Below are positions 41,237 to 62,633 of a stretch of 64,000 nt of DNA, one piece after another; within the stretch, counting starts at the first letter, position 1, and each line of letters opens with the position of its first letter. A program made the translations under genes and the position numbers. The notes below the pieces were generated by a model. The model had not been told where the DNA came from. It saw nothing but the letters and a program-made list of their open reading frames with translations, and searched no databases. Source of the DNA: Acidimicrobiales bacterium (GTDB taxonomy: Bacteria > Actinomycetota > Acidimicrobiia > Acidimicrobiales > Acidimicrobilacustridaceae). The DNA is taken from contig JBBEAV010000015.1 of NCBI GenBank assembly GCA_040882655.1, forward strand, positions 48,672 through 112,671, written 5' to 3'.

Positions 41237-41254
41237 TTGTGCAATCGTTCACAA
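41237..41254. promoter_or_regulatory. Rex operator (ROP)
   Basis: TTGTGCA-ATCG-TTCACAA, one mismatch to TTGTGAA-N4-TTCACAA, abutting the GGGAGG RBS of the first gene of the respiratory operon. Confidence 0.8.
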
Positions 41255-41269
41255 GGGAGGCCAATCCGG

Positions 41270-41725
41270 GTGGTTGCGTTCATCGCATCGGTACTTGTGA
41301 TGGTCTTATTGACCGCACTCGTGATTCCGGTGGCTAAGCGGCGTCCAGTAGGAACCCCAGTCACTTGGGGCGAGGCCATGGTGGTAGCGGTCTATGTCTT
41401 TTTCCTCTTCTTTTGGGCCTACGGGCTCGTTCCTCATCTGTTTCTCACATGGGCAGACAACGAACTTGGTTGGCGCCCAGACAAACTTCTTCTCGGCCCC
41501 GGTGGCATTCTCAAGCCCCAGTCCCTTGACGGGTTGAGCCCCATTACGATCTCGTATCAGACAATCAGGGATATTCTTGCTGTCCTTCTCTACGTGGTCC
41601 TGCTGGGCGCAAACATTGCACTTTGGATGTGGTGGCAGAATCGCGGAAAGCGTGTTGAGGCCGCCAAAACCGCCAAGGCCACGGCGACCTCCGAGTACGG
41701 TCGACCGATGGCTAGGAACAACTAG
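41270..41725 (+). CDS. Hypothetical 3-TM membrane protein, first gene of the respiratory operon
   Basis: GGGAGG then GTG 41270. Three hydrophobic segments and TWGEAM...YGLVPHLFLTWADNELGW. Ends 2 nt before the ferredoxin. Confidence 0.75.
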   Translation: MVAFIASVLVMVLLTALVIPVAKRRPVGTPVTWGEAMVVAVYVFFLFFWAYGLVPHLFLTWADNELGWRPDKLLLGPGGILKPQSLDGLSPITISYQTIRDILAVLLYVVLLGANIALWMWWQNRGKRVEAAKTAKATATSEYGRPMARNN

Positions 41726-41727: not shown

Positions 41728-42144
41728 ATGGCGCGAATAGATGCCAATCCTCCGATGCCAGAGTTCCGCGACGATTACGTCCTGCGGGAAGTCGACGCCG
41801 AGTGGCTTTCCAAGGCGGTCAAGCCAAAACAGTTCATCCACATTGACCAGTCTGAATGCATCACTTGCGAGGGCTGTGTCGATATCTGCCCATGGAAATG
41901 CATCCATCTCGTCCGCACCTCTTCCATTGACGAGGCCCTAGGGACAGAACTTCCCGGCGACGACCCCGGTGACCATTCGGTCTTTTTGATCGATGACGAT
42001 GTGTGCACTCGCTGCGCGCTTTGCGTTGATCGCTGCCCAACTGGTGTGATCATCCTCGGGAAGGTCGGTGCTGCACCGGCCGATGGCGATTCTCACCAAC
42101 GCATGCCCACCCACGGCTATGGGTACGGGATGCGCCTCGGCTAG
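41728..42144 (+). CDS. 2x[4Fe-4S] dicluster ferredoxin-like protein
   Basis: CITCEGCVDICP and CTRCALCVDRCP. Confidence 0.92.
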   Translation: MARIDANPPMPEFRDDYVLREVDAEWLSKAVKPKQFIHIDQSECITCEGCVDICPWKCIHLVRTSSIDEALGTELPGDDPGDHSVFLIDDDVCTRCALCVDRCPTGVIILGKVGAAPADGDSHQRMPTHGYGYGMRLG

Positions 42145-42253: not shown

Positions 42254-43042
42254 TTGGCCAAAACCATGGAGCGACCCAGCGGGAAGAAGACCCCCGCCCA
42301 GCGCGTCAGTGAAATCGTCGACAAAACGCAAGGCTCACAAGCCTGGAACTCTATTTTCCGTCCAGGCTCGGTGTTCCGAAAGGGCTACACCGATAGCCCC
42401 CGTAACCGTTCTTACGTGATCATGAACAGCGTGCTGTACCACCTTCACCCCGTGAAGGTGAAGCGTCATGCGGTAAAGGTCAGCTACACCTTGTGCCTTG
42501 GAGGGCTCAGTTTCTTTCTTTTCATTCTGCTGACCATCACCGGCATTTTCTTGATGTTCTTTTATCGCCCCACCGCTGCGCAGGCTTGGAACGACATCTA
42601 CACGCTTCAGACTTCTGTTGCTTTCGGCCTTCTGGTCCGGAATGTGCACAGATGGGCCGCCCATCTCATGGTGTTGGCAGTGTTCTTGCACATGGCCCGT
42701 GTCTTCTACCACGGTGCCTATAAACCGCCTCGCGAGTTCAATTGGGTAATCGGCGTCATTCTCTTGACCCTGACTCTGCTCCTTTCCTTTACTGGTTATC
42801 TCCTTCCATGGGATCAGCTTGCACTTTGGGCCGTCACCGTAGGTACCAACATGATGGGGTACACCCCGGTCTTCGGCGAGCAAGTGAGGTTCGTTCTCCT
42901 TGGAGGCAAAGAAATTGGTACCGACACGCTGTTGCGTTGGTACGTGTTACACGTGTTGTTTGTTCCATTCGTGACAGTCATCTTCCTTGCGATCCACTTC
43001 TGGCGGGTTCGCAAGGATGGCGGCATCTCCGGACCATTGTGA
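42254..43042 (+). CDS. Cytochrome b N-terminal subunit (split, b6/Firmicutes QcrB-like) with heme-ci Cys
   Basis: YTLCLGG, RNVHRW...FLHMAR, TGYLLPWDQ, VLHV...IHFWRVRKDGGISGPL (four His ligands). Start is TTG 42254 or ATG 42266. Confidence 0.9.
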   Translation: MAKTMERPSGKKTPAQRVSEIVDKTQGSQAWNSIFRPGSVFRKGYTDSPRNRSYVIMNSVLYHLHPVKVKRHAVKVSYTLCLGGLSFFLFILLTITGIFLMFFYRPTAAQAWNDIYTLQTSVAFGLLVRNVHRWAAHLMVLAVFLHMARVFYHGAYKPPREFNWVIGVILLTLTLLLSFTGYLLPWDQLALWAVTVGTNMMGYTPVFGEQVRFVLLGGKEIGTDTLLRWYVLHVLFVPFVTVIFLAIHFWRVRKDGGISGPL

Positions 43043-43052: not shown

Positions 43053-43838
43053 ATGACAGAGATACCCGAACATCTCCGCAAACGCGCTGAAGAGGCGAAG
43101 GCCAAGGCAGCGGCCAAGGCAGCCGGCGACGCGCCCGGCGGCGCAACCACGGCAGCCGAGGCACCGGCTACCGCAGCACCGAGCGCGGGCGATAGTCGTA
43201 TTCCGGCCCATTTGCTCGAGCGATCAAAATCGGCAAAAGCCAAAAAAGACAGCGGTACCGATGTTGTTGCTGCCACCACTGGCGGCGGTGTTGCTACTGC
43301 GGTGGCCGAAGCGGCGCCACCTCCCACGGCCACTGGCCCCGGTGGGCACACACAACGCCTACTCACGGTGGTCAAGGCCGGTTCAATCCAAGACCTGAAG
43401 TCAGTTCCCGTAGACAAAGTCCATGTGTGGCCGCATCTTCTAGCCATCGAATTTGTGGCGGCGTTGGCGATCACGGTTTTCACTCTGATTTTTTCGGTCT
43501 TCGTGAACGCTCCGCTCCTTGAACTCGCAAATCTCAATGAGACGCCAAACCCATCGAAAGCACCTTGGTACTTTCTTGGCCTTCAGGAACTCCTCACTAT
43601 GTTCCACCCAATGGTGGCCGGTGTGACCATCCCCGGTATGGGTATTTTCCTGTTGATCCTTGCTCCCTACATTGATCGCAACCCGTCAAATAAGCCCGAA
43701 GATCGCAAGTTTGCGATCTCACTCTTTACTGTGCAACTGATGTTCTGGGCAGTACTGGTCATTATTGGTTCCTTCTTCCGTGGGCCTGGCTTCCTTTTTG
43801 TGACGCCATGGACCGGCGGCCTGTTCTTCGAGTTGTGA
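43053..43838 (+). CDS. Cytochrome b C-terminal subunit (subunit IV-like) with long N-terminal extension
   Basis: GAGGAG RBS; VWPHLL, APLLELAN...TPNPSKAPWYFLGLQELL, PYIDRNP, IIGSFFRGPG. Confidence 0.88.
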   Translation: MTEIPEHLRKRAEEAKAKAAAKAAGDAPGGATTAAEAPATAAPSAGDSRIPAHLLERSKSAKAKKDSGTDVVAATTGGGVATAVAEAAPPPTATGPGGHTQRLLTVVKAGSIQDLKSVPVDKVHVWPHLLAIEFVAALAITVFTLIFSVFVNAPLLELANLNETPNPSKAPWYFLGLQELLTMFHPMVAGVTIPGMGIFLLILAPYIDRNPSNKPEDRKFAISLFTVQLMFWAVLVIIGSFFRGPGFLFVTPWTGGLFFEL

Positions 43839-43863: not shown

Positions 43864-44718
43864 ATGAACCCTCTCGTCATCGTCATTCCTGTCCTCGTGG
43901 TTCTCGCCGGCGTGGTGCTTTATGCCGCATCACGGCGACGTGATAGTGCTGGTGTAACTGGCGCCCTTAGTCGCGAGACGGTGAAGCGAGATAAGCCCGC
44001 AGTTGCGCTTGAAGGGGACGCTGAATTAGCTGGCGTTTCCGGTCGGCAGGTCGAGGCCACTGCGGCGCTCGAGCGCCGCCCGAGCGCACCGGCCCTATCG
44101 AACACTGAGATTGCTCCGTTCGTGGCCCCTGATGCCGATGCCATTGGTATCTCACGAAGAAAGTTCTTCAACCGATCCATCATCGTAATGATGGGTCTCG
44201 CGTTGTCGGGCTTTGGTGCGGCTACTCTTGCCTTCCTTTGGCCAATGCCCAAGGGCGGATTTGGCTCGAAGATTCGAGTAGGCACTATCGCCGATGTTCA
44301 GGCAAAAATCGTCGCCAATAAGGGCTTTCTCTACTCGGCTGAAGGCCGTATGTGGTTAACCTCCTACCCCAAGGCGGCGACGGCGAAAGCGAAGGCCGTT
44401 TATCCGGCGGCAGTGCTTCCGTCAATGGAAGCGGGCGTGGTGGCTCTTTATCAAAAGTGTCCGCACCTTGGTTGTCGGGTCCCCTCTTGCGTGACTTCGC
44501 AGTGGTTCGAATGCCCATGCCACGGTTCTCAATACAATCTGGCCGGCGAGAAAAAAGGCGGTCCGGCCCCCCGCGGTATGGATCGATTCGCAACCTCAGT
44601 AGCGGGCGATGTCCTCACGGTCGATACCGGTCAGATCATTCAAGGCCCGGCCATTGGCACCAATACCACTGGGCAAGAAGCTGAAGGCCCACATTGTGTG
44701 GGTGGAGGAAGTCACTGA
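43864..44718 (+). CDS. Rieske [2Fe-2S] protein with an N-terminal TM and an internal Tat motif
   Basis: CPHLGC and CPCHGSQY boxes, GPAPRGMD, SRRKFF before the second TM. Confidence 0.93.
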   Translation: MNPLVIVIPVLVVLAGVVLYAASRRRDSAGVTGALSRETVKRDKPAVALEGDAELAGVSGRQVEATAALERRPSAPALSNTEIAPFVAPDADAIGISRRKFFNRSIIVMMGLALSGFGAATLAFLWPMPKGGFGSKIRVGTIADVQAKIVANKGFLYSAEGRMWLTSYPKAATAKAKAVYPAAVLPSMEAGVVALYQKCPHLGCRVPSCVTSQWFECPCHGSQYNLAGEKKGGPAPRGMDRFATSVAGDVLTVDTGQIIQGPAIGTNTTGQEAEGPHCVGGGSH

Positions 44719-45818
44719 TGTACGACTTGGTCATTTTGGCGAGCGCACAGCAGACGATCGGTTATGTCGTCGCCGGCATCCTTCTCGTTGCGTTTGTTGT
44801 CGCCATTGCGGTGAATGTGCGCAAGAGCCGATCGGAGATTGGCTCGGAAGTTGCACTCGCTGCGAATCGCAAGCCGTACATGAACGATGAGGAACTCGAG
44901 ACCAAAAAGCTCGATCGCACCCTTGGTTTAGGTCTTGTTGCACTTGGTGTTATCGCCCTCACCCTGCCGCTGTACTGGTTAGCTGAGCCTGGCCGCCAAG
45001 AAGACTCAGTTAAACTTTTTGAGAACATTGCGATTTCTCGGGGCGAGGAGATTTATACGGTGGGTGCGCAGTGCGCGAATTGCCACGGACCCAATGGTGT
45101 CGGTGGTGTTGCTAGTTACACGCTCCTTGACCCTGCAACCGGCGCATATGTCGATCAGGTCGAATGGAAGTCTCCTGCGCTTGACACAGTGATGTATCGC
45201 TATACGCCAGAGCAACTCACTTACATCCTCAATTACGGCCGCGGTTACTCACCGATGCCGGCATGGGGTGCACCCGGCGGTGGTCCGCTCACCGAGCAGC
45301 AAATCGAGGAAGTCATTGCGTACCTCTTTTCAATCCAGTTGCCGGCTGCAGAATCTCAAGCAGCAGTGCAAGCACAACTCGACCTTGTCTGTAAGGCCGA
45401 CGCCAACAACAACTGCACCGTGACTGGCGCCGAGTACAAGACCCTTGGCGAAGCAATCTTCAATCTTGGCTACAGCGATGGTTTCGCCGCCGGCGCTTAT
45501 GCCTGCGGACGTTGTCATACTCCGGGGTGGTCCTTTGGTGATGCCGGCGTGGCCGGCGGTGGCGCGATGGGCCCAAGCTTTATCGGCGGTTCTGCGGAGC
45601 GACAGTTCCCGGTTGCCACTCAGCAGGAAGCCTACGTATCGGCTTATCCAAAGATGGGAACGGCCTATGGCGTCAACGGCTGGTCGAGTGGCCGCATGGG
45701 TAGTTTTGGCACTAATCCAAATGCTCAAGACCCTAAGACGGCACTGATGAGCCAAGACCAAGTCATGCTTACGCCCAACCAAATAGCGGCTGTTGTCGCC
45801 TACGAGCGGAGCCTCTAA
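44718..45818 (+). CDS. Membrane-anchored dihaem cytochrome c
   Basis: Two N-terminal TMs; CANCH with SPMPAWG and CGRCH with GRMGSF. TGATG overlap with the Rieske gene. Confidence 0.9.
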   Translation: MYDLVILASAQQTIGYVVAGILLVAFVVAIAVNVRKSRSEIGSEVALAANRKPYMNDEELETKKLDRTLGLGLVALGVIALTLPLYWLAEPGRQEDSVKLFENIAISRGEEIYTVGAQCANCHGPNGVGGVASYTLLDPATGAYVDQVEWKSPALDTVMYRYTPEQLTYILNYGRGYSPMPAWGAPGGGPLTEQQIEEVIAYLFSIQLPAAESQAAVQAQLDLVCKADANNNCTVTGAEYKTLGEAIFNLGYSDGFAAGAYACGRCHTPGWSFGDAGVAGGGAMGPSFIGGSAERQFPVATQQEAYVSAYPKMGTAYGVNGWSSGRMGSFGTNPNAQDPKTALMSQDQVMLTPNQIAAVVAYERSL

Positions 45819-46768
45819 TGGAAACGCTTCAGGTCTTGGCTGGTATCTCGTTCGATCCGGGCATCCGCGGCATCCTTGTAGTGCTTGTGGGTGTCGTGGT
45901 GCTGATGGGCTCTACTTATTTGTTGTTAAGCACCAACCTAGGCTCGCGCCTTGGGTTCCTGGTTGCACTCACTGGTCTTTTCGGTTGGCTTGTCATCCTC
46001 ACCTTTATTTGGTGGCTCACGCCGCCGGCAATTGGTCCGCGAGGCAACATCCCGACCTGGCAACCGGTGGAGATTTACGTGAACGGCGGAAATGATCGGG
46101 CTACGACTGACCCACTTAACCTGCTAGCCGACCCTGCTTCGTTGCCCCGCGCCGACGAAATTCTCGCCGAAAACCCAGACCTTGCCGAGGAATTTCCCAA
46201 TCCGAGTGGAACGTCACTGTCCGATATCCAATCCAACAACCCTGACATTGTAAGCGCCTATCTTCCGCCCGATTCGCTGAACGGTTGGAAACTTGTCTCT
46301 GCGTCGAACGCAGGCGAAGCGCAAGCTGCGGCCGATCTCGAACTGGTTAACTCTGGTGTTTTCAAGTCTGCAGCCGACTATAAGAAAATCAATACGTGGC
46401 AGTTTGGCGGGAAGCCAACATTGAAAGACGACTGCCCTGATGGCGGTGTTGTCTGTCGAGTCGTGCATCGAGTGTCCTCGGCCATTCAAGTGAAAAATCC
46501 TACGAATTACAGCGTGGTGCAGGTGCAGCAAGTAATTCCACAGGTAACAGTCCCGGGCCAGGCACCCCCAATCCCAAAGGCTGACCCAAGTAAGCCAGTC
46601 ATCTCGGTTGTTTTCGTTCGAGATATCGGCAACGAGCGCGTGATTCCGTTCTTGTATTTCGTCATCTCTTTGGCACTGTTTGTTCTCACAGCTTGGGCCT
46701 TGCACAATCGTGACAAGACACTCATGAAGAACAAGGCCATGGCCGAAGCCGCGTCGAAAGGGAACTGA
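45818..46768 (+). CDS. Hypothetical membrane protein (2 TM + extracytoplasmic domain + 1 TM)
   Basis: TAATG coupling to the cytochrome c and a 5-nt gap to nuoA. Hydrophobic ends and a Cys pair (DDCPDGGVVC). Confidence 0.8.
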   Translation: METLQVLAGISFDPGIRGILVVLVGVVVLMGSTYLLLSTNLGSRLGFLVALTGLFGWLVILTFIWWLTPPAIGPRGNIPTWQPVEIYVNGGNDRATTDPLNLLADPASLPRADEILAENPDLAEEFPNPSGTSLSDIQSNNPDIVSAYLPPDSLNGWKLVSASNAGEAQAAADLELVNSGVFKSAADYKKINTWQFGGKPTLKDDCPDGGVVCRVVHRVSSAIQVKNPTNYSVVQVQQVIPQVTVPGQAPPIPKADPSKPVISVVFVRDIGNERVIPFLYFVISLALFVLTAWALHNRDKTLMKNKAMAEAASKGN

Positions 46769-46773: not shown

Positions 46774-47232
46774 GTGGGGCAGTACCTGCCGATCTTCGCA
46801 ATGCTTGTCTTGGCGATTGGCTTCGCCGTGATCAGCCGCGTGGTATCGCAACTCCTTGCGCCCCGGCGTCCCTCCGAAGCAAAGTCCTCACCCTATGAAT
46901 GTGGCATCGTTCCCGAGGAGGGCCGGCCCGAGCGTTTCCCGGTGAAGTTTTTTCTTGTTGCCATGATCTTTATCGTGATTGACATTGAACTCATCTTCCT
47001 GTTCCCGTTTGCTGTGGTGTTTCGATCACTTGGGGGTTACGGAATCGTTGCCATTCTCATTTTCACCGCAGCAGTGTTTGAGTCTTTTGTGTATTTGATC
47101 GGCAACGGTGCCCTTGATTGGGGCCCGGTAAAGCAACTCCGTCGTTCCGAAGCTGTTTCTCCTGCTCGGACGGCAACAAGCACCATCCGTCGCGTCGGCG
47201 CTGAGGGCCGTCCAAGTCGAGAGGCTGCTTAA
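46774..47232 (+). CDS. nuoA: NADH-quinone oxidoreductase subunit A
   Basis: KSSPYECG, RFPVKFFLVAMIFIVIDIE, GALDW. Confidence 0.95.
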   Translation: MGQYLPIFAMLVLAIGFAVISRVVSQLLAPRRPSEAKSSPYECGIVPEEGRPERFPVKFFLVAMIFIVIDIELIFLFPFAVVFRSLGGYGIVAILIFTAAVFESFVYLIGNGALDWGPVKQLRRSEAVSPARTATSTIRRVGAEGRPSREAA

Positions 47233-47820
47233 GTGTCAAGTGAAAGCAGACCCACAGGCGGAATTCTCGAGTCAGGCCTCGAAGGACTAAGCCATAACTT
47301 TTTGACCGGCACGCTTGAAGAGTTGGTGAAGTGGGCGCGTCGCCACAGTGTGATGCCGGCCACCTTCGGGCTGGCTTGCTGCGCACTTGAAATGATGGCT
47401 GCCGGCGGACCTCACTACGACCTTGCCCGTTACGGAATGGAAACCTTCCGTGCCTCGCCAAGGCAAGCTGACCTCATGATCGTCGCCGGGCGTGTTTCAC
47501 AAAAGATGGCTCCGGTAATGCGCCAGATCTACGACCAGATGATGGAACCTAAATGGGTCATTTCGATGGGCGTCTGTGCATCTTCAGGTGGCATGTTTAA
47601 CAACTACGCCATCGTGCAAGGTGTCGATCAAATCATTCCGGTTGACGTTTACGCGCCAGGTTGTCCGCCATCTCCGGAAACGCTTATGCACGCAATCCTG
47701 ACCTTGCACGACAAGATCAAGAACGGTGAACTGACTCGCCGCAAGGGCGAGGGCGCCGGACTCGTCATCGAGCAACTTGGTATTTCGGGGCCAGTGCCTG
47801 TCACTTTGGGTCAGGGCTGA
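47233..47820 (+). CDS. nuoB: NADH-quinone oxidoreductase subunit B
   Basis: [37 protein letters not shown]. Confidence 0.96.
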
Positions 47821-47822
47821 AC

Positions 47823-48353
47823 ATGACTGATGTCGACGCCGGATCCGGCGAGGCTGACACCTTGGCTGAGATCGCACCCGAAACACTTTTCGGAGCATTG
47901 TTGACTCGTTCGCACGAACAGTTGGTGGTGCATCCGTTGCGAGCGGCCTATTTGCCGTTACTCGCTACATTGCATTCCGAGGGTTATCACTCAGTGATTG
48001 ATCTCTGCGGTGTCGACTACCTCACAAACTTTTCACGTTCACTGCCGGCAGGGGTCGAAGCCGAGCGATTCGAAGTTGTAGTGAATCTCATTAATCATCG
48101 TGAGCGGGCCCGTCTTCGACTGCGAGTCCAAGTCCCCGAATCTGACCTCGTGCTTTCTTCCGCATTTAACCTTTATCCGGGAACCGAAGCGATGGAACGT
48201 GAAACCTTCGACATGTTTGGTATCGCGTTCGACGGTCATCCCGACCTCACCCGAATCCTGATGCCCGAGGACTGGATCGGCCACCCACTGCGCAAGGACT
48301 ACGACATCGGCCGTATTCCTGTTCAGTTCAAGGGCGCCCCCGCGAACCGTTGA
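47823..48353 (+). CDS. nuoC: NADH-quinone oxidoreductase subunit C
   Basis: DLCGVDY, RFEVV, ERETFDMFGI.FDGHPDLTRILMP, GHPLRKDY. Confidence 0.95.
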   Translation: MTDVDAGSGEADTLAEIAPETLFGALLTRSHEQLVVHPLRAAYLPLLATLHSEGYHSVIDLCGVDYLTNFSRSLPAGVEAERFEVVVNLINHRERARLRLRVQVPESDLVLSSAFNLYPGTEAMERETFDMFGIAFDGHPDLTRILMPEDWIGHPLRKDYDIGRIPVQFKGAPANR

Positions 48354-48357
48354 CCCC

Positions 48358-49692
48358 ATGACAGCGACACACGAGATCCCAACAAACGTGAATCAAACCT
48401 CTGAGGGTGGTCAGCAACTGACCTCGGCTGGGGTTCTCGCCGCCGCCGAAAAACTGCGCGAGCTCGGATCGGTTCTACGCCTTTCTGAAAATGAAGCACT
48501 GCTTGCCGAGCGCGACCAAATCCCTGATGACGAAACCATGATCATCAACATGGGTCCGCAACACCCGTCTACTCACGGTGTGTTGCGTCTTATGTTGGAA
48601 CTGCAAGGCGAAACCGTTCTTCGCTGCAAGCCAATCATCGGATATCTGCACACGGGCATGGAGCGAACCGGCGAAGAACTCAGTTACTTGCAGGGCCCGA
48701 CCAATGTGACTCGGATGGATTACGCCGCGCCACTGTTTACCGAACTTGCGTTTTCTCTCACCGTCGAAAAACTGCTTGACATTGAAGTACCTGAGCGTGC
48801 GATTTGGATTCGCATGCTTATGACCGAAATGAATCGCATCTCATCGCACCTTTTGTTTATGGCCACTAATGGCATGGACCTTGGTGCTGTTTCGATGATG
48901 CTTTACGGCTGGCGCGAACGCGAAGAGGCACTTCGTTTCCTCCAAGAAGTCACCGGCCTCCGCATGAATCACAACTACATCCGTCCGGGTGGCGTTGCGG
49001 CCGACCTCCCCGATGGATGGCGCGACGGCGTACTGCGCCTGCTCGACATGCTTCCTCCTCGTCTTGACGAGTACGACACGCTTATGACCCAGCAGCCAAT
49101 CTGGCGCGAACGCTTGCAGGGTGTCGGCGCAATCACCGCCGAAGAGTGTCTAGCCCTCGGTGTTACCGGCCCCATGCTTCGCTCAACAGGTTACGACTGG
49201 GACCTGCGCCGAGATATGCCTTACCTCGCCTTCGACCAGGTTGAGTTCGATGTAGTTGTGGGTTCCTATGGCGATTGCTTTGATCGCTATGCGATTCGGC
49301 TTGCAGAGATCCATGAGTCAATGAAGATCGTCCGTCAGTGTCTCGAGAAGATGCCCAAAGGTGACTATCGCATCCAGGACAAGAAAGTCACTCCGCCACC
49401 GCGAGCACGAATCGACGAGTCCATGGAAGCGCTTATTCACCACTTCAAGATTTTCACTGAAGGGTTCAAAGTTCCAGAAGGCGAGGCTTACGTTGCCATT
49501 GAGTCGCCACGTGGCGAGCTTGGTTGCTACATCGTAAGCGATGGTTCCTCGAACCCCTACCGCATGCACGTTCGTGCCCCAAGTTTTGTGAACCTTCAGA
49601 GCCTCCCTCATCTGATGCACGGCAGCCTGATCGCCGACGCTGTGGCGATTATTTCCAGTGTCGATCCAATCCTCGGGGAGGTCGATCGCTGA
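48358..49692 (+). CDS. nuoD: NADH-quinone oxidoreductase subunit D
   Basis: NMGPQHPSTHGVLRL, GYLHTG, RMDY, ESPRGE, DPILGEVDR. Confidence 0.97.
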   Translation: MTATHEIPTNVNQTSEGGQQLTSAGVLAAAEKLRELGSVLRLSENEALLAERDQIPDDETMIINMGPQHPSTHGVLRLMLELQGETVLRCKPIIGYLHTGMERTGEELSYLQGPTNVTRMDYAAPLFTELAFSLTVEKLLDIEVPERAIWIRMLMTEMNRISSHLLFMATNGMDLGAVSMMLYGWREREEALRFLQEVTGLRMNHNYIRPGGVAADLPDGWRDGVLRLLDMLPPRLDEYDTLMTQQPIWRERLQGVGAITAEECLALGVTGPMLRSTGYDWDLRRDMPYLAFDQVEFDVVVGSYGDCFDRYAIRLAEIHESMKIVRQCLEKMPKGDYRIQDKKVTPPPRARIDESMEALIHHFKIFTEGFKVPEGEAYVAIESPRGELGCYIVSDGSSNPYRMHVRAPSFVNLQSLPHLMHGSLIADAVAIISSVDPILGEVDR

Positions 49693-54323: not shown

Positions 54324-54383
54324 ACTCGGGCAGTTTCGAAATTTCATTTTTAGTTGTGAACTATCTCTTTGGAGGTACCCCGA

Positions 54384-55592
54384 ATGTTTGGTGGTGACCC
54401 TCTTTTAACTGGTCAGGTTGATCTGACTGTCGTTCTCATCGTCTTGCTCAAAGTGGTTGCGGTATTTGTGTTTCTTTTGGTGGCGACCATGCTGATGATC
54501 TGGTTTGAGCGGAAAGTTGTCAGTGATTTTCAGAATCGCGTTGGACCGAATACTGCAGGTCCATTTGGTATTCTCCAGACTCTCGCCGATGGCATCAAGT
54601 TCTTCTTCAAAGAAGACCTCATCCCTGAGAGAGCCGAGCGAAGGGTCTTTATCCTTGCCCCGTTACTTACTGTCGTGCCTGCATTTTTGCTTTTCACGAT
54701 TGTCCCGTTTGGTGGAGATTTCAGTAACGGTCATGACGGATCGGTCGAATTGTTTGGCCGCACGACGTATCTTCAGGTAGCCGACCCGGCCATCGGAATC
54801 CTTTTCGCGCTCGCCATGTCATCAATTGCGGTCTACGGGGTAATGCTTGCCGGTTGGTCTTCAGGATCAAAGTATCCACTGATTGGTTCGGTGCGCGCTT
54901 CGGCGCAAATGGTCTCATACGAGGCTGCCCTCGGCCTGTCGGTTTGCGCGGTTGTCCTCACTACCGGAACCCTCAGCACTCATGGCATCGTCATGGCGCA
55001 GGCAGGTAGCGGATGGGGCGGCTTCATACCCCACTGGAATTTGATTGCCACGGGCTTCGTACCGTTTGTGGTGTTTTTGCTGGCCAGTCAAGCGGAACTC
55101 AATCGCCCGCCTTTCGACTTAGTGGAAGCCGAACAGGAATTGGTTGGCAGTTATCACACTGAGTATTCGTCGATCCGGTTCGCACTTTTTTTCGTTGCGG
55201 AGTTCATGAACTCCGTGACCATGGCGGCAATTATCGTCACATTGTTCCTGGGTGGCCCGGCGGGACCAGCACTTCTCGGACCAGGTTGGATGTGGGGGAT
55301 CATTTGGTTTTTCGTCAAGATCGTTGCGTTTCTCTTCCTTTTTGTTTGGGTTCGAAGCACGCTTCCCCGAGTCCGCTACGACCAACTCATGGATTTGGGT
55401 TGGAAAGTCCTTATTCCGCTATCTCTAGGTTGGCTACTCCTTCTCGCTACATTTTGGGTGGCACGTGACCAGCAATGGAATGGCTTCATCACTATTGCGA
55501 TTGGTGCCGTTGTGGGTCTTACCGGTTACGGGCTGCTGAAAGCGGCTATCGCAACATCTCGTGCTCGCCGACTTGAAGGGGTGGTCGACTGA
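54384..55592 (+). CDS. nuoH: NADH-quinone oxidoreductase subunit H
   Basis: GGAGG RBS; ERKV, RVGP, QTLADGIK, AQMVSYE, NRPPFDLVEAE, PRVRYDQLM. Confidence 0.97.
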   Translation: MFGGDPLLTGQVDLTVVLIVLLKVVAVFVFLLVATMLMIWFERKVVSDFQNRVGPNTAGPFGILQTLADGIKFFFKEDLIPERAERRVFILAPLLTVVPAFLLFTIVPFGGDFSNGHDGSVELFGRTTYLQVADPAIGILFALAMSSIAVYGVMLAGWSSGSKYPLIGSVRASAQMVSYEAALGLSVCAVVLTTGTLSTHGIVMAQAGSGWGGFIPHWNLIATGFVPFVVFLLASQAELNRPPFDLVEAEQELVGSYHTEYSSIRFALFFVAEFMNSVTMAAIIVTLFLGGPAGPALLGPGWMWGIIWFFVKIVAFLFLFVWVRSTLPRVRYDQLMDLGWKVLIPLSLGWLLLLATFWVARDQQWNGFITIAIGAVVGLTGYGLLKAAIATSRARRLEGVVD

Positions 55593-56320
55593 TGGGTTAC
55601 CTCGGTGGCTTTCTCGTTAGCTTGCGCCAAATTGGCCGCAAACAACGCGTTACAACTCAGTATCCAAAAGAAAAAGCCCCTAAGCCGATTCGAGTGCACG
55701 GACGTCACGTCCTCAATCGGTACGAAGATGGCATGGAAAAGTGCATTGGTTGCGAACTTTGCGCCGGGGTATGCCCCGCTAAGTGCATCTTTGTGCGCGG
55801 TGCCGATAATCCAATTGACGAGCCGGTGTCACCAGGCGAGCGATTTGGTTACATCTACGAGATCAACTACCTGCGCTGCATCCACTGCGACCTCTGTGTT
55901 GAAGCGTGTCCGACCGAAGCCATTACCGAGAGCAAGATGTTTGAGTTCTCGTTTACAAATCGCGCTGACGCGATCTACACCAAGGCCGAACTCGTTGTTG
56001 ATGATGACGGTAAGCCGCAAAAAATGCCCTGGGAAGATTGGCGCGAAGGCGAAGATCTCCCCACCTCGGCCTGGATGCGGGCAACCTCGCCTTCGGGTTC
56101 TGCTGCGTTTGAAGGTGTCGTCGGTTGGTCTGGCGAACTCGGATACGGCATCCGTGCTCCAGAAGCTGCGCAAGACATCAAGGATTCGATAGCGACTCCG
56201 CTTGACATGATTGATGAACAAAGTCATGCCCATCAGGATCATGCACCCGGAACGCAGGAACATGTTTCTCCCGGGCACACCGACAACGATGACGAAGGCG
56301 AACGGGGCGGTGATCGCTAG
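55592..56320 (+). CDS. nuoI: NADH-quinone oxidoreductase subunit I (C-terminal extension)
   Basis: TQYP, KCIGCELCAGVCP, RCIHCDLCVEACP. Confidence 0.96.
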   Translation: MGYLGGFLVSLRQIGRKQRVTTQYPKEKAPKPIRVHGRHVLNRYEDGMEKCIGCELCAGVCPAKCIFVRGADNPIDEPVSPGERFGYIYEINYLRCIHCDLCVEACPTEAITESKMFEFSFTNRADAIYTKAELVVDDDGKPQKMPWEDWREGEDLPTSAWMRATSPSGSAAFEGVVGWSGELGYGIRAPEAAQDIKDSIATPLDMIDEQSHAHQDHAPGTQEHVSPGHTDNDDEGERGGDR

Positions 56321-56322
56321 TA

Positions 56323-56925
56323 ATGGAAACCGCCGTTTTTGTTGTCTGCGCCCTCATCGTGCTTTCCGGAGGCCTCGGTGTGGTGTCCTCGCGCAACCCC
56401 GTGCACTCGGCGCTGAGCCTCATAGCGACTCTTTTCGGCATCGCCGTGCTCTTTCTCAACCTTGGCGCGGAACTGCTCGCTGTTGTTCAGGTCATCGTTT
56501 ATACGGGGGCCATCGTCGTTCTCATTCTTTTCGTCATGATGCTTCTAGGCGTTGATAGCGAAGAGGATCTCGATACCGAGCCGCTAGTGGGCCAGCGTCT
56601 TCTTGCCGGACTTGTTGGGTTGTTATTCCTGGGGGCGATTCTGGCGATCATCATCATCGGTCAGGACGCAATAGTTACGGGCTCTCAGTCGGTAACCAGT
56701 GCTCTCTCACCGACGGTTTCGAATATCACGCAGATCGGTACTGAACTGTTCACCACCTACGTGTTTTCCCTCGAAATTACTGCTGGCTTGCTCACCATCG
56801 CTGTTGTCGGAGCAGTTGCGTTATCGCGTCGACCTCGTGATGTTCAACCCATCCCCGAGCCAGCGTCCATGACTGAAATGGGCGACGAGCCACTCACCGC
56901 CATCCCCGAGGAAGGCGCGCACTGA
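56323..56925 (+). CDS. nuoJ: NADH-quinone oxidoreductase subunit J
   Basis: [31 protein letters not shown]. Confidence 0.95.
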
Positions 56926-57233
56926 TGGATTCCAATCTTTCACTTGCGTATCTCATGCTCTCGGCAATCCTGTTTGTGATTGGTGGCGTCGGAGTGCTTA
57001 TCCGGCGTAATCCGCTGATCATGATCATGTGCGTTGAACTCATGCTTAACGCCGTCAACCTTTCATTTGTCACCTTCGGGAAGATGCTCAATGACATCTC
57101 CGGTCAGATCATCGTGTTTTTCGTCATGGTTGTTGCCGCTGCCGAAGTTGTTATCGGGCTCGCCCTCATCGTGGCAATGGCTCGACGTCGACCAGGTGCT
57201 ACGGCCGATGATCTTCGGACGCTGAGGGGATAG
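56925..57233 (+). CDS. nuoK: NADH-quinone oxidoreductase subunit K
   Basis: [22 protein letters not shown]. Confidence 0.96.
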
Positions 57234-57238
57234 GGGAC

Positions 57239-59266
57239 ATGGTCGGTCTTGTTTGGTTGATTCCTGCGCTGCCCCTCGCTGGGTTCTTGGTATTGGTGTT
57301 CTTTGGAAAGCGCATCGGTGAGCCTCGCGCTGGTTGGATTGGCACCGGGGCAGTTGCGTTGTCATTTGTGACTGCGTGCATTGTTTTCGTTGGGCTTTGG
57401 GGCGAACCTGATCACACCTATCAACTTTCGCTGTTCGAATGGATTCCCGCCGGAAGATTCAGCGTAGATATTGGTTTCCTGCTTGATCCGCTTTCAATGG
57501 CGATGGTTCTTTTTGTGACAGGGATCGCGTCGCTGATTCATCTCTACTCCACCGGTTACATGCATGGTGACAGTCGCTTTCCCCTCTTCTTTACCTATCT
57601 GAATCTCTTCGTCTTCTCGATGCTTGTTCTGGTGCTCGGAGATAATTTGGTTCTTACGTTCTTGGGGTGGGAGGGCGTTGGTGCTTGCTCCTACTTCCTC
57701 ATCGCTTTCTGGTTCGAAAAGGATGAGAACGCAAGTGCAGGCAAGAAAGCTTTCATTACCAACCGTGTCGGTGATTGGGGCTTCATGGTCGCAATCTTCA
57801 TGACCTTTTTTGCCTTTGGAACCGTGACGTATAGCGAATTCCTGCCGATGGCCCCAGGACTGGCCCAAACCACCGCGACATTTATCGCCTTCATGTTATT
57901 TGTTGGGGCAATTGGCAAGTCAGCGCAGATTCCGCTGTTCGTTTGGCTCCCTGATGCCATGGCTGGCCCCACACCGGTCTCGGCGCTTATCCATGCGGCC
58001 ACGATGGTCACTGCTGGCGTGTACTTGCTCGTGCGCGTGAACCCAATCATTGCTGCTTCCGCATCATGGATTCCATGGACGATCGCAATCGTTGGTTGCG
58101 CAACAGCGTTCCTAGCTGCCACCATCGCCTTGGCCCAACAGGACATTAAAAAGGTCCTTGCCTACTCAACAGTGAGCCAACTTGGCTATATGTTCCTGGC
58201 CGTAGGTGTTGGCGGCTATACCGCCGCTATCTTCCACATGATCACGCATGCATTCTTCAAGGCGTTGTTGTTCCTCGGCGCCGGCTCAGTTATTCACGGC
58301 ATGCACGATGAACAAGACATGCGGCGCATGGGAGCGCTGCGAAAGATCATGCCTGTCACTGCAGTGACATTTATTATCGGATGGCTCGCCATTGCGGGCG
58401 TCCCGCCGTTCTCAGGCTTTTGGTCAAAGGACGATATTCTCGCCTATGCGCTGAACAAGAGTCCGATCCTCTACGTAATTGGTCTCATCACCGCTCTACT
58501 TACGGCGTTTTATATGAGCCGCCTTGTCTTCCGAGTTTTTTACGGTGACGCACGTTGGGGCGAATCAGCAGAGGGCGAACTAGCCAATCTGAAAGCGCAT
58601 ACCGCAATGAACGCGGGCACTGGTGTTGACGCTGTCACGGGAACTGACACTGGAACTGGAACCGGCACTGACACTGATGTCTTGGTTGACACTCATGAAG
58701 ATGAGGGTACTGGCCTTAGTTCGGTGCACCCGCATGAGTCCAAGTGGCCAATGTTGGTGCCGCTCGTAGTGCTTGCCTTCTTCGCTGCTATCGCCGGTTT
58801 CCTCAACCTCCCGTTCACCGACCAACTCCAGTTTTTGAATCGTTGGCTCGAACCAGTAGTTGGCGAGAATGAGGCCCACTTCGAAATGGGGGGAGTAAAA
58901 CTCACCGTTGAACTACTTATTTCAACGGTGGTTGCCTTCTCTGGAATTTTTGCTGCCTACTTCGTCTACCTGAAGAAGAAGATTGACCCCCGCCGCATCG
59001 AGCTTCCATTTTTCGCCAATGGTTGGTACATCGACCAGAGCATCACTGCCTTCATGGGCGGAGTTGGTCGAAAGGGTTTTGAACTGATTGCCATGTTCGA
59101 CAAGGTGGTCATCGATGGTGCAGTGAATGGTGTCGGCCGAGCTACACGCGGCGGCGCCGCTCGGCTCCGGACCGTCGAAAACGGATACGTGCGTTGGTAT
59201 GCGCTGATGATCGGCGTTGGTGCGGTTTTGATGGTCGCCTTCGTGCTGACGCAGGTGAGCTTCTGA
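57239..59266 (+). CDS. nuoL: NADH-quinone oxidoreductase subunit L
   Basis: GWEGVG, KAFITNRVGD, GKSAQIPL..WLPDAMAGPTPVSALIHAATMV, HAFFKALLF. Confidence 0.97.
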   Translation: MVGLVWLIPALPLAGFLVLVFFGKRIGEPRAGWIGTGAVALSFVTACIVFVGLWGEPDHTYQLSLFEWIPAGRFSVDIGFLLDPLSMAMVLFVTGIASLIHLYSTGYMHGDSRFPLFFTYLNLFVFSMLVLVLGDNLVLTFLGWEGVGACSYFLIAFWFEKDENASAGKKAFITNRVGDWGFMVAIFMTFFAFGTVTYSEFLPMAPGLAQTTATFIAFMLFVGAIGKSAQIPLFVWLPDAMAGPTPVSALIHAATMVTAGVYLLVRVNPIIAASASWIPWTIAIVGCATAFLAATIALAQQDIKKVLAYSTVSQLGYMFLAVGVGGYTAAIFHMITHAFFKALLFLGAGSVIHGMHDEQDMRRMGALRKIMPVTAVTFIIGWLAIAGVPPFSGFWSKDDILAYALNKSPILYVIGLITALLTAFYMSRLVFRVFYGDARWGESAEGELANLKAHTAMNAGTGVDAVTGTDTGTGTGTDTDVLVDTHEDEGTGLSSVHPHESKWPMLVPLVVLAFFAAIAGFLNLPFTDQLQFLNRWLEPVVGENEAHFEMGGVKLTVELLISTVVAFSGIFAAYFVYLKKKIDPRRIELPFFANGWYIDQSITAFMGGVGRKGFELIAMFDKVVIDGAVNGVGRATRGGAARLRTVENGYVRWYALMIGVGAVLMVAFVLTQVSF

Positions 59267-60918
59267 TGAGCGTTTCAATTCTTTCCTCGGTTTTGGCTGC
59301 TGCAGGTTCGCCATCGTTTCCAATACTCGCATCACTGGTTTTTGTACCGCTGGTCGGAGCGATCCTCATCGCACTCATGCCAAAGTCACGGCCCGAGCTT
59401 TCGCGTCAAATGGCCATCATCACGGCATTGCTCACCGGAGTATTGAGTATTGCTCTACTGGTGCAGTTCAAGACCGGTGAGGCTGGGTTCCAGTTTGTTG
59501 TTCAACAGACGTGGGTGGAGTCGCTCGATATCAAATTCTTCCTCGGCGTCGACGGCATTTCCTTATTCCTCGTTGTCCTTACCGGCATTTTGTTCCCGAT
59601 AGCGCTCTTCGCAGCGAAGCCGGACCACAGCCCAAAGGGGTACTACGCCTGGCTCACGCTTTTGATGGCCGGTTGCATGGGTGCTTTCTTGGCCCTTGAT
59701 CTCTTCCTTTTCTTCCTCATGTTTGAGATCACCTTGGTGCCGCTCTACATGCTCATTGGTAAATGGGGTCATGGCCGGCGCATTTATGCTGCCACCAAGT
59801 TTTTCCTCTACACAATGCTTGGCTCGGCTTTCATGTTGGTCTCGATCGTCACGCTTGCTGTGCTTGCTGGCGCCGGCGACAACGGTGGAGTCTCATTCGA
59901 CTTCACAAAGATCATCGCCACCGACAACTTGGCTACTACTACTGGTCGTTGGTTATTCCTCGGGATGGCTATCGCTTTTGCGGTCAAGGTTCCGTCATTT
60001 CCATTCCATACATGGTTGCCCGATGCTCATACCGAAGCACCGACCGCAGGCTCAATTGATCTCGCCGGAATCTTGCTCAAACTCGGAACTTACGGTTTTC
60101 TTCGTTATGGGCTTGAACTTTTCCCTGAAGCAACGGTGTGGTTTGCGCCGGTGATGCTGACGCTGGCCACGATTGGTGTGGTCTATGGCGGCATCGTTGC
60201 TGCGATGCAACGAAATCTCAAACGTCTCGTTGCCTATTCATCGGTTGCTCACATGGGCTTTGCTCTGATGGGAATCTTCGCATTGAACGTTGAAGGTATT
60301 GAGGGCTCGGTGATGCAAATGGTGAACCATGGCATCACCACCGGTGCACTATTTATTCTTCTCGGCTTTCTTTACAGCCGCCGCCATACCTACGAGATTT
60401 CTGAACTCAAAGGCATCGCCAAAGTAGCCCCGGTATTCGCAGGTGTTTTCACTCTGGTGATGCTCGCTTCAATAGGCGTACCGGGCCTCAACGGTTTCGT
60501 TGGCGAGTTCCTTGTTCTTCTCGGTACGTTCGCCTCGAATCGCTGGTGGGCAGTCGTAGCCACCACCGGTGTGATCATCGCCGCGCTTTATTTGCTTTGG
60601 GCCTATCAGCGTGTGTTCCAGGGCGAGCCTGACGAGGCAAATAAATCATTCCCAGATTTGAAAATTTCTGAAAAACTCGTGATGCTTCCTCTTGTCGGCC
60701 TTATTATTTTCTTGGGCGTCTACCCCAAGCCAGTCCTCGATCGAATCGAGCCCTCAGTGAAGCGAGTGGTCACTCGTCTCGAGGTGAAGGTTGAAGGATT
60801 CCGTGAGCCCGTCACCCGTGATGGGGCCGATCTCCTTTTTAAAGCAGGATCCTCGCATGGGCTGAATGAGGAACACTCTCTTCGTAGTAACCCGAACGGA
60901 ACGGGGGCGAACCAGTGA
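59266..60918 (+). CDS. nuoM: NADH-quinone oxidoreductase subunit M
   Basis: GVDGISL, KFFLYT, HTWLPDAHTEAPT, LLKLG, KRLVAYSSVAHMG, GFVGEF. Confidence 0.96.
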   Translation: MSVSILSSVLAAAGSPSFPILASLVFVPLVGAILIALMPKSRPELSRQMAIITALLTGVLSIALLVQFKTGEAGFQFVVQQTWVESLDIKFFLGVDGISLFLVVLTGILFPIALFAAKPDHSPKGYYAWLTLLMAGCMGAFLALDLFLFFLMFEITLVPLYMLIGKWGHGRRIYAATKFFLYTMLGSAFMLVSIVTLAVLAGAGDNGGVSFDFTKIIATDNLATTTGRWLFLGMAIAFAVKVPSFPFHTWLPDAHTEAPTAGSIDLAGILLKLGTYGFLRYGLELFPEATVWFAPVMLTLATIGVVYGGIVAAMQRNLKRLVAYSSVAHMGFALMGIFALNVEGIEGSVMQMVNHGITTGALFILLGFLYSRRHTYEISELKGIAKVAPVFAGVFTLVMLASIGVPGLNGFVGEFLVLLGTFASNRWWAVVATTGVIIAALYLLWAYQRVFQGEPDEANKSFPDLKISEKLVMLPLVGLIIFLGVYPKPVLDRIEPSVKRVVTRLEVKVEGFREPVTRDGADLLFKAGSSHGLNEEHSLRSNPNGTGANQ

Positions 60919-62633
60919 TTGCCACTCTTTTTGCTCAGGTTGACTCGCCGTTGCTCCGCGACGGCACCGCTGGCGGAACCTCAGAACTATTAGCCGACGG
61001 AATCGTGAAAGTGACAGGTCCGTCCGTTGATTGGCTTGCGCTGTTGCCGCTTCTTTTTTTGCTAGTCGGAGCGTTGCTGACACTCACGTTTTCTTCACTC
61101 TTGAGAAGTCGCGTACCCAAGAGCCTCTTCACGTACACCACTGTTGCGATCGCTATCGCTGCAGCGATCAGTGCCGTCCCCATGTGGGCTCGGGTGCAAG
61201 GGTGGGACACCTTGCTTTGGTGGACCATCGACCACCCCCAGACCGGACCATTCAGCACCGTCGGCGGAGCAGTCGGAATCGACGGCTTCTCATTGTTCAT
61301 CACGATGGTGTTGTGCATAGGCGTCGTACTGACGGCGCTTTTGGCCGATAACTTTTTGCGACGAGAGTCCATGACGGGTCCCGAGTTTTATGTCCTGTTG
61401 CTGCTCTCAGCAGTCGGTGGCGTCATCATGGCGATGTCGAATGATCTCATCGTGTTGTTCATAGGTCTTGAGACGTTGTCTATAGCGGTCTACGTGCTGG
61501 CAGGCATGAACTTGCGCCGGGTGCAATCCCAAGAGTCGGGTCTCAAGTATTTCGTCCTCGGTGCTTTCTCATCGGCGTTTCTTCTTTATGGCATAGCAAT
61601 GCTTTACGGCGCCACTGGTTCAACGAATTTTTCTGACATCCGTGATTTCATGGCGGCAGTCGTTCCAATTCATAACGGCCTCCTCTTGCTCGGCTTAGTG
61701 CTCGTCCTTGTTGGTCTGGCGTTTAAAATTTCAGCTGTTCCTTTTCATGCATGGAGCCCAGACGTCTACGACGGTGCCCCGACTCCGTCAACGGCGTGGA
61801 TGGCTGCTGGAGTCAAGGTCGCTGCAGTCGCCGGATTGGTTCGTGTCTTCATGTTGACCTTTTCGAACTACGGATCAACCTGGAAGCCAATCGTTTACGT
61901 CTTGGCCATTCTTTCGATGGTGATCGGCGCATCGCTGGCAATCGTGCAGAGCAACGTAAAACGAATGCTGGCCTACTCTTCCATCAGCCACGCTGGTTTC
62001 ATTCTGATGGCGGTTCAGTCAAATTCCAGCGACGGAATAACGGCCGCAGCGTTCTACGTTGCGGTGTACACATTCATGGTTGCCGGTTCCTTCGGTGTGG
62101 CCACGATCGTCGGTCGTAAAGGCGATGGACACCACGAACTTGCTGACTACAAGGGCCTCGTGCGCTCCAACCCGTGGTTGGCTGGCTCTTTCATTCTGCT
62201 GTTGCTCGCCCAGGCTGGAGTTCCCTTTACTGCGGGTTTCTTCGCCAAGTTTCTCGCAATCACCGCAGCTGCTGATGCTCATGCTGTTCCACTGGCAATT
62301 ATTGCCATGGTGTCAGCGGTCATTTCCGCCTTCTTGTACCTCCGAATCATTGTCGCCATGTTCATGTCGGACGACGAAGCAGGGGCTGGCGCGCCAATTG
62401 ACCGATCGCAGCGTCTCCGAGTCCCCTTTGGAGCTGGTCTTGCCATTGGGATCTGCGTTTTCGTTACCGTGGGATATGGATTGCTCCCCGATCTCCTTCT
62501 TCAGCCTGCGCGTGAGGCAACCCCTGCGGTGGTGCAGTACGAGCGTCCCAATGACGCGCTCAGTGCCGGTAGCGGCCTTTCCGTGGGTCCCACTTCGGGT
62601 TCCGGTGCTGGGTCCACCACCGCTGGTGGCTGA
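60915..62633 (+). CDS. nuoN: NADH-quinone oxidoreductase subunit N
   Basis: ESGLKYF, FKISAVPFHAWSPDVYDGAPT, KRMLAYSSISHAG, GFFAK. Confidence 0.96.
   Translation: MIATLFAQVDSPLLRDGTAGGTSELLADGIVKVTGPSVDWLALLPLLFLLVGALLTLTFSSLLRSRVPKSLFTYTTVAIAIAAAISAVPMWARVQGWDTLLWWTIDHPQTGPFSTVGGAVGIDGFSLFITMVLCIGVVLTALLADNFLRRESMTGPEFYVLLLLSAVGGVIMAMSNDLIVLFIGLETLSIAVYVLAGMNLRRVQSQESGLKYFVLGAFSSAFLLYGIAMLYGATGSTNFSDIRDFMAAVVPIHNGLLLLGLVLVLVGLAFKISAVPFHAWSPDVYDGAPTPSTAWMAAGVKVAAVAGLVRVFMLTFSNYGSTWKPIVYVLAILSMVIGASLAIVQSNVKRMLAYSSISHAGFILMAVQSNSSDGITAAAFYVAVYTFMVAGSFGVATIVGRKGDGHHELADYKGLVRSNPWLAGSFILLLLAQAGVPFTAGFFAKFLAITAAADAHAVPLAIIAMVSAVISAFLYLRIIVAMFMSDDEAGAGAPIDRSQRLRVPFGAGLAIGICVFVTVGYGLLPDLLLQPAREATPAVVQYERPNDALSAGSGLSVGPTSGSGAGSTTAGG

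Follow-up and report, generated by a model that had tools for sequence, protein, structure and literature searches.

A Rex-linked gene cluster of an Acidimicrobiales bacterium places a probable ferredoxin-bearing, b6-type complex III ahead of complex I, with a second, NuoEFG-less complex I as candidate partner of the ferredoxin

When genes for a cytochrome b complex run on into genes for a complete complex I with hardly a gap between them, do the two sets of products share a promoter only, or also a particle and a path for electrons? This question is raised by a 64,000-nucleotide stretch of DNA from an Acidimicrobiales bacterium (contig JBBEAV010000015.1 of GenBank assembly GCA_040882655.1, forward-strand positions 48,672 to 112,671; hereafter the window), in which seven genes, here called the module, are followed by nuoA-N. 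The host is a freshwater actinobacterium whose assembly of 1.9 Mb is 81.7% complete. The account that we favor, with a probability of roughly 0.55 for the whole, is that the module encodes one b6-type complex III with a ferredoxin of its own, that the nuo operon behind it is transcribed jointly with it, and that the ferredoxin would serve a second complex I encoded further downstream. As far as sequence can tell, nothing points to complex I and complex III as one particle. The features on which the argument turns are as follows.

41237..41254, + strand: Rex-type operator TTGTGCAATCGTTCACAA, directly 5' of the orfA ribosome-binding site
41270..41725, + strand: orfA, 151 aa, three predicted transmembrane (TM) segments, without a known family; first gene of the module throughout
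41728..42144, + strand: 2x[4Fe-4S] ferredoxin (Fd), 138 aa, net charge -10
42254..43042, + strand: cytochrome b6-like subunit, cyt b(N) (PF00033, ExtP)
43053..43838, + strand: subunit IV with the Qo motif APWY
43864..44718, + strand: Rieske protein with the Tat motif SRRKFF and an S-Y signature
44718..45818, + strand: membrane-anchored dihaem cytochrome c, two CxxCH motifs, two TM segments
45818..46768, + strand: orfB, 316 aa, three TM segments, no family; constant last gene of the module
46774..62633, + strand: nuoA-N, full 14-subunit complex I including NuoEFG, with a Pfam/NCBIfam match for each subunit

The front genes encode a cytochrome b complex of the b6 type. The cyt b subunit passes the ExtP model (306.7 bits, cut-off 290) and scores 121.5 bits against the QcrB model, whose cut-off is 500; its closest solved relatives are cytochromes b6. 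Numbered from ATG 42266 and aligned to b6, its haem ligands H128, H142, H229, and H244 and the cysteine C77 (in CLGG) are invariant in 36 rows, the haem c_i cysteine is kept in 123 of 127 homologues, and the protein has a long, conserved cytoplasmic N-terminus. Among 130 subunit IV homologues 129 carry the APWY motif, H128 and E133 are invariant, and the cytoplasmic residues T100-Q101-R102-L103 are conserved. The split into cyt b and subunit IV, together with APWY, supports the description of a non-canonical split cytochrome b complex given in an initial annotation of this DNA. The Rieske S-Y signature was present in all 128 motifs read among 130 homologues; a rule set out by Kao and Hunte (PMC4122944) rates proteins with this signature above 260 mV, and the Rieske protein is thus predicted to be of high potential. 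Two CxxCH motifs were found in 130 of 134 homologues of the dihaem cytochrome c. Within the core, H59 is invariant and retained in sister complexes, a comparison made among module and sister proteins; in Kuenenia models, an extra inter-monomer haem has His43/His62.

The module cyt b is the only one of its kind or family in the assembly. The menB gene was found in all five genomes checked, which argues for menaquinone as the quinone, and all five close relatives carry a haem-copper oxidase cluster with a cytochrome c-fused subunit II, unlinked to the module (at a distance of about 1 Mb in G019, 0.3 Mb in G095). Because of these three observations, we are fairly confident that the module is this lineage's complex III, running forward as a menaquinol oxidase. 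A divergent cytochrome just upstream, found at the equivalent position in most same-order loci, is a candidate electron carrier to the oxidase:

40168..40968, - strand: membrane-anchored monohaem cytochrome c (PF13442/PF00034, one CxxCH, one TM segment)

A second COX1-like gene (554 aa) was seen 5' of the intact oxidase cluster in two relatives (L148:9703-13773 of G019, and L147 of G095). It lacks the haem and copper His motifs that were checked, and its neighbors are a COX3-like gene, a member of the UbiA family, and an uncharacterised gene of 279 aa. All five relatives have a second match to COX1.

How tightly is this complex III tied to complex I? All 21 same-strand genes named in the initial annotation are present and packed as it described: most gaps are below 30 nt, the exceptions being Fd-cyt b (109-121 nt, T-rich in this genus alone) and nuoG-nuoH (at least 45 nt). 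The orfB stop at 46768 and the nuoA GTG at 46774 leave 5 nt between them, and the junction is free of terminator-like sites, both as noted before; the terminator scan says little, however, because its 26 sites in the 40-59 kb region are close to the 22.5 +/- 4.8 expected by chance. Both ends of the block were corrected. Position 41237, the first coordinate of the initial annotation, belongs to the operator; for orfA the most likely start is GTG 41270, its homologues being 151 aa long. The respiratory genes also do not end at 62633: nuoA2-B2-C2-D2-H2-I2-J2-K2-L2-M2-N2 begin 77 nt later and run beyond the window. The Fd-cyt b gap of this genome (42145-42253, 109 nt, T-rich, with a small hairpin) is genus-specific and a possible RNA-processing site; the idea of a general terminator there was rejected, as the gap is short in most other families.

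Among 59 close-relative loci collected by orfB alignment, a set biased to close kin, 56 have downstream DNA; nuoA abuts orfB within 30 nt in 55 of them and lies at 98 nt in the remaining one. For a wider view, a cyt b orthologue was found in 138 of 151 genomes of an even class sample and in 119 of 301 genomes of the phylum. We read 80 of the 138 module genomes, hand-picked for family spread. The nuoA gene abuts the module in 19 of 19 informative genomes of the same order, across nine families, vs none of 56 in other orders, where nuo lies 259-356 nt away (three genomes), 732-973 nt away (three), more than 1 kb downstream (16), divergently upstream (10), or outside the region read (24). The seven genes themselves are complete in 19 of 20 same-order and 55 of 60 other-order regions, five of the remainder being cut by contig ends and one lacking Fd. 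Of 20 regions read from other classes, 18 hold full modules and two are cut, with no nuo gene near any of them. Seven same-order genomes lack the module altogether. Where nuo is separate, a menJ-like gene stands 5' of nuoA; where nuo abuts orfB, the menJ-like gene stays upstream on the other strand, a pattern that fits translocation of nuo. The module is old and self-contained, and its fusion to nuo is a derived operon capture at the level of the order. The linkage that the initial annotation expected across relatives is therefore conserved within the order and absent beyond it, an outcome which that annotation had itself counted against a joint complex I-complex III unit. Several side observations concern these neighborhoods. 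In family f22 and others, a gene of ~205 aa lies on the opposite strand right 3' of orfB (L135:10786-11406), and the one tested is rex; rex-hem, the menJ-like gene, nuo, and the module look like a shuffled respiratory neighborhood. Family f16 (L139, L140, and L212), with genomes of about 1 Mb, keeps the whole module and both complexes I.

The candidate control element is the Rex-type operator. By the consensus footprinted in Streptomyces avermitilis (PMC5355995), TTGTGCAATCGTTCACAA is the sole match with one mismatch among 13 sites in the assembly at two or fewer, and the rex gene, on contig C2, has a 2-mismatch box just 5' of it. The share of loci with an operator at two or fewer mismatches is 32 of 42 among close relatives, 5 of 20 in the same order (13 when three are allowed), and 3 of 59 in other orders, with a background rate of 9 in 1380 windows; this distribution follows the same taxonomic pattern as nuo abutment. 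A TANNNT motif immediately 5' of the box occurs in 31 of 46 relatives vs none of 46 control windows, and is weak in this genome. In S. avermitilis, Rex is reported to repress nuoA1-N1 (PMC5355995). The best box of the genome lying at the promoter and a rex gene with a box of its own make the Rex control proposed earlier likely, and the short, conserved gap to nuoA does the same for the proposed co-expression. We hold it very probable that Rex binds at 41237-41254, and just as strongly predict that the module and nuoA-N are transcribed together from one Rex-repressed promoter. Rex-like boxes were also seen outside long open reading frames at G000:C4:54782 and C28:46937.

The two orphan membrane proteins would be the obvious adaptors of a joint particle. 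We found no Pfam/NCBIfam match for orfA, which has 223 homologues, occurs in modules across the phylum, and has a structure model with a pLDDT of 87. For orfB, with 967 homologues, there was likewise no Pfam/NCBIfam family, and its outer domain is dispensable, since several families have forms of about 120 aa whatever the gene layout. Neither protein matched a known fold in Foldseek (E<=0.001); the highest Z scores in VIA, 7.8 and 8.8 (orfA/orfB), correspond to generic helical bundles, and the Atlas matches are uncharacterised Actinomycetota clusters alone. Because the same seven-gene module is kept where nuo is unlinked, orfA and orfB belong to complex III. The seven genes keep their order where nuo is divergent, distant, or absent nearby, which speaks against the earlier picture of both orphans joining complex I and complex III.

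This leaves the ferredoxin. Fd has two CxxCxxCxxxCP motifs and no TM segment or signal. In 36 of 36 aligned sequences the eight cysteines of the clusters are invariant, as are many residues at the surface, and identity among close relatives (97-99%) is as high as that of cyt b. It was found in 114 of the 301 phylum genomes, 92 of these outside the class. In eight sister complexes a protein of 600-700 aa takes the place of the Fd gene, its end is 35-42% identical to Fd, and the three scanned all have Fer4_20, Pyr_redox_2, and Fer4 domains. The window module encodes the Fer4 domain alone, with no FAD/NAD(P)-binding oxidoreductase subunit. By this analogy, Fd would be the remnant of an anammox-type NAD(P) oxidoreductase minus its flavin part. 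These sister complexes (L150-L157) are APWY-type complexes within the class with the full FAD/NAD(P) oxidoreductase; next to two of them stand COX2 and COX1 as a pair and a fusion protein (cyt b-Fer4-FlpD-cyt c) of about 720 aa. Long open frames over Fd (1296 aa in L122) were considered as fusions and rejected, as they overlap orfA in another frame.

Modules that have lost Fd suggest where it binds. There are seven (in G151, G152, G084, G303, G314, G335, and G355), and the losses in L053 (G151) and L114 (G084) are independent (approximately unbiased test, p=1.4e-6, with L061 excluded for its frameshifted cyt b). Each of these two loci deviates at 16 of 264 near-invariant columns, vs 12 or fewer for Fd-bearing loci of the class survey, and together they share six changes at near-invariant sites, vs two or fewer for 1554 equally distant Fd-bearing pairs. 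Five of the six fall in two cytoplasmic stretches (cyt b G40 and S44; subunit IV T100, Q101, and T105). A third Fd-less lineage, four genomes of family f83, has lost the same subunit IV stretch, which two Fd-bearing relatives keep, and G314 repeats the cyt b change G40D. Because conserved cytoplasmic residues decay in three Fd-less lineages, Fd probably docks on the cytoplasmic face of cyt b and subunit IV. The cytoplasmic Fe-S subunit anticipated by the initial annotation is thus found in Fd, which behaves as a subunit of complex III. Mutual information between Fd and the other subunits (118 rows) made no pair prominent and was dominated by phylogeny, and the predicted complex of cyt b, subunit IV, and Fd, with single copies and 36-row alignments, scored 0.03 (mark 0.32), a value that speaks neither for nor against docking. 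In one clade (L124, L135, and L138), cyt b G40D is paired with Fd E48A and A97K, possibly a charge compensation, and a single event.

With the flavin domain lost, Fd needs a separate partner, and a candidate begins just behind nuoN:

62680..62710 (approximate), + strand: promoter-like stretch TTCATG-N18-TAGAGT 5' of nuoA2
62711..64000, + strand: start of the second complex I (nuoA2, B2, and C2); D2-N2 continue to C15:121779

This second complex I has 11 subunits (A, B, C, D, H-N), and no second NuoEFG was found in the 81.7% complete assembly. It keeps the N2 and NuoI cysteines, and NuoD2 lacks the NiFe CxxC. The cluster follows nuoN in tandem throughout this family, as well as in G003 and G122, and a conserved gene of ~370 aa comes after it (G000:C15:111382-122923). 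The promoter-like motif of nuoA2 recurs with the same sequence and spacing in L158 and L159, with a -10-like hexamer in L160, L164, and L165, which suggests a separate promoter for the second nuo cluster. At the place where NuoI1 is acidic, NuoI2 carries a conserved, basic loop; Fd is acidic. NuoD2 has Trp where NuoD1 has Tyr (RIDW vs RMDY), at what we take to be a quinone-site residue.

The distributions of Fd and the second complex I overlap closely. Searched with full-length NuoD2, as a 70-residue query did not separate the paralogues, the 301 phylum genomes comprised 110 with Fd and NuoD2 (106 without four unpublished genomes, all in this category), 4 with Fd alone, 39 with NuoD2 alone, and 148 with neither. 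Three of the four with Fd alone have NuoM2, so that 113 of 114 Fd-bearing genomes carry the second complex I; in the exception, G225, the contig ends just after nuoN. In the class sample, NuoD2 or NuoM2 was found in 137 of 138 module genomes, the exception being the Fd-less G084, and seven same-order genomes with merely weak cyt b matches have neither the module nor the second complex I. Four of the seven Fd-less modules (G151, G303, G084, and G152) occur without a detectable second complex (one NuoH or no NuoD2). The dependence is one-way: Fd needs the second complex, and not the reverse. For the guess that follows we draw on this distribution, on the charge pattern, and on an energetic argument put forward for Kuenenia. 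We regard it as possible, though tentatively, that Fd exchanges electrons with the second complex I, and as doubtful, on present sequence evidence, that it passes them outward in that direction. The cyclic or reverse flow of the initial annotation survives in this form, with the NuoEFG-less complex I, which it had left out, as the better partner.

The route that we propose would begin with complex I, which would reduce menaquinone with NADH, and complexes I and III would be coupled via the menaquinone pool. Menaquinol would be oxidized at the APWY site. One electron would pass from the Rieske protein to the dihaem cytochrome c and on to a caa3-type oxidase encoded elsewhere, and the other would cross haems bP, bN, and c_i. 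Fd, lying under haem c_i, would be the outlet for this low-potential electron and would hand it to the head-less 11-subunit complex I, which would return it to menaquinone while pumping protons. A high-potential Rieske protein working with menaquinone is the mismatch behind the argument for NAD(P) reduction in Kuenenia, where a Rieske potential near +300 mV is said to imply very low haem b potentials (PMC12954380). We offer as a speculative possibility that such an extended Q-loop operates here, with the Rieske-driven low-potential electron leaving via haem c_i and Fd, the latter as input head of the 11-subunit complex I. Complex III and the 11-subunit complex I might then be physically associated. 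If true, the extended Q-loop would be for respiration what cyclic flow through NDH-1 is for photosynthesis, and would name the donor of an orphan class of complex I.

Several observations weigh against this account. No haem-copper oxidase or COX1 was found in the host assembly, at 81.7% completeness, which encodes a bd oxidase. In some Fd-bearing genomes cyt b has D40 or T44, or subunit IV is acidic at position 101, as single changes; Fd-less modules retain the S-Y Rieske signature. The co-losses are solid in G151 and G303 alone, as the G084 contig ends inside nuoL with NuoM1 also missing, and G152 is full of frameshifts. Three of the seven Fd-less module genomes (G314, G335, and G355) keep the second complex, so the notion that Fd loss always removes it was rejected. 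The second complex also occurs without Fd in 39 of the 149 phylum genomes that have it and in five class genomes (G070, G106, G100, G109, and G121), and must therefore have other donors or functions. Kin are not independent; relatedness inflates the counts, and shared ancestry explains much of the co-occurrence. The NuoD2 Tyr-to-Trp change may go with a different acceptor or direction. For APWY complexes, the proposal of Kao and Hunte is that they operate in reverse (PMC4122944).

Other explanations have to be set against these points. On the model of the initial annotation, the 21 products would join complex I and complex III in one supercomplex, for which orfA, orfB, and Fd would be the adaptors and in which the 14-subunit complex I would allow cyclic or reverse flow. 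The short gap is conserved within the order behind a single operator, and because assembly needs no gene linkage the synteny survey leaves room for such a particle. It is nevertheless weakened by the module occurring unchanged without nuo: both orphans and Fd are retained where nuo is unlinked, orfB comes down to about 120 aa in some families under any layout, G151 and G152 have lost Fd but not the fusion, and the menJ-like gene pattern indicates simple translocation. We consider the supercomplex very unlikely. The overlap of Fd with the second complex could also be shared ancestry alone, Fd being a structural or redox-sensing remnant without through-flow. Its dispensability in three lineages and the persistence of the second complex without it agree with this, but the invariance of the cluster cysteines and of many surface residues, and the 97-99% identity among close relatives, speak against it, and we think this improbable.

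The remaining alternatives turn on direction. Ferredoxin-driven cyclic flow has been proposed at the b6f complex, and on that model Fd would be a bound relay inward (e.g., from F420H2 via an FrhB/FpoF-like protein) to haem c_i and bN, the second complex being fed separately by F420. This direction is downhill and needs no unusual potentials, the haem c_i cysteine is kept as noted, cofE was found in five of five genomes checked, an FrhB-type gene is present in this genome, and F420 has been suggested as donor of the Actinomarinales paralogue of the second complex (Lopez-Perez et al., PMC7771536). Presence of the FrhB-type gene does not follow that of the second complex, however (20 of 30 genomes with it and 4 of 6 without in a hand-picked 36), so an FpoF-like protein as its obligatory head was rejected, and the gene was not found in several near-complete Fd-bearing genomes such as G007, G023, G055, and G215. 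As for other donors to Fd, POR/OGOR was not found in five genomes of the genus (G000, G002, G019, G036, and G008), and the inward relay leaves the rarity of Fd without the second complex unexplained; it seems unlikely to us. Complex III could instead work in reverse, from cytochrome c to menaquinone, or the second complex I could spend the proton gradient on reducing Fd with electrons of menaquinol, for use in biosynthesis. Kao and Hunte, drawing on a Geobacter proposal, tie the combination of APWY and a high-potential Rieske protein to reversal (PMC4122944), an Acidimicrobiia isolate is reported to fix CO2 on sulfide by the reversed oxidative tricarboxylic acid cycle, which needs reduced ferredoxin (PMC11697166), and the NuoD2 Tyr-to-Trp change would suit it. 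Yet the module is the only cytochrome b complex found, the cytochrome c oxidase of the relatives needs a donor, and Fd-dependent carboxylating enzymes were searched for and not found in the genus. We judge either form of reversal quite improbable, and our preference stays with a forward complex III whose Fd would serve the second complex I.

Upstream of the cluster, the window holds haem synthesis genes (23356-40128), namely cobA/hemD, hemB, and hemL by Pfam and, by inspection, ferrochelatase-like and uroporphyrinogen decarboxylase-like genes. A photolyase-like open reading frame (34346-35812) was assigned by inspection alone.

What do these results change? The module is the usual complex III for a large share of Actinomycetota, yet it escapes surveys built on KEGG: in Table S7 of PMC11697166, petB and qcrA have scores near zero. 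Among the 168 genomes of that table, 92 have at least two nuoA and no qcrB, 60 have at most one nuoA with qcrB, and 16 are discordant, so that by its counts canonical QcrB and the second complex I nearly exclude each other. Complex III has been called missing in Actinomarinales (PMC7771536). For the 11-subunit complexes, the distribution of Fd gives a concrete donor candidate and a predicted docking patch; the operon fusion by itself is of modest interest. Already published are the APWY clade with Ilumatobacter (PMC4122944), actinobacterial 11-subunit complexes (PMC3144371), and the Actinomarinales paralogue (PMC7771536). New here are the putative Fd docking patch read from loss lineages and the joint distribution of Fd and the second complex I. 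A search of the open-licence literature (PMC, bioRxiv) found no paper that treats this operon, and none in which a Rieske/b ferredoxin feeds an 11-subunit complex I.

Among known systems, the nearest is the APWY clade catalogued by Kao and Hunte in 2014 (PMC4122944), which includes Ilumatobacter coccineus and shares the split cyt b and subunit IV, APWY, the S-Y Rieske protein, and the haem c_i cysteine; no mention was found there of an Fd subunit, orphan membrane proteins, a Rex site, or nuo linkage. At that date the clade had no biochemically characterised member. The ExtP model that our cyt b passes belongs to NCBIfam ExtP/ExtQ of the Geobacter ext cluster. Rex of S. avermitilis acts on nuo and rex-hem through the same operator consensus; the nuo genes have a promoter of their own there, and the main text of that report leaves qcr unmentioned (PMC5355995). 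The Actinomycetia QcrCAB/bcc-aa3 system also oxidizes menaquinol and has a membrane-anchored dihaem cytochrome c and, as is likely here, a haem-copper oxidase as acceptor, but its cyt b is unsplit with PDWY and encoded beside cta genes, whereas here cyt b is split, the motif is APWY, and the oxidase genes are unlinked. The anammox complexes Kuste4569-4574 and Kustd1480-1485 (PMC12954380; subfamily G, PMC5600118) have in common with the module a b6-like core, a high-potential Rieske protein with menaquinone, and a cytoplasmic Fe-S partner and, judging by sequence position, the Glu and His beside haem cN. They carry a full FAD/NAD(P) oxidoreductase and multihaem c cytochromes, in contrast to the terminal 2x[4Fe-4S] domain of this aerobic heterotroph. 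Finally, the 11-subunit complex I-like enzymes reported earlier (PMC3144371; the Actinomarinales paralogue, PMC7771536), whose donor is described as unknown or proposed to be F420, consist, like the second complex I here, of A, B, C, D, and H-N without NuoEFG and are likewise encoded beside a full nuo operon.

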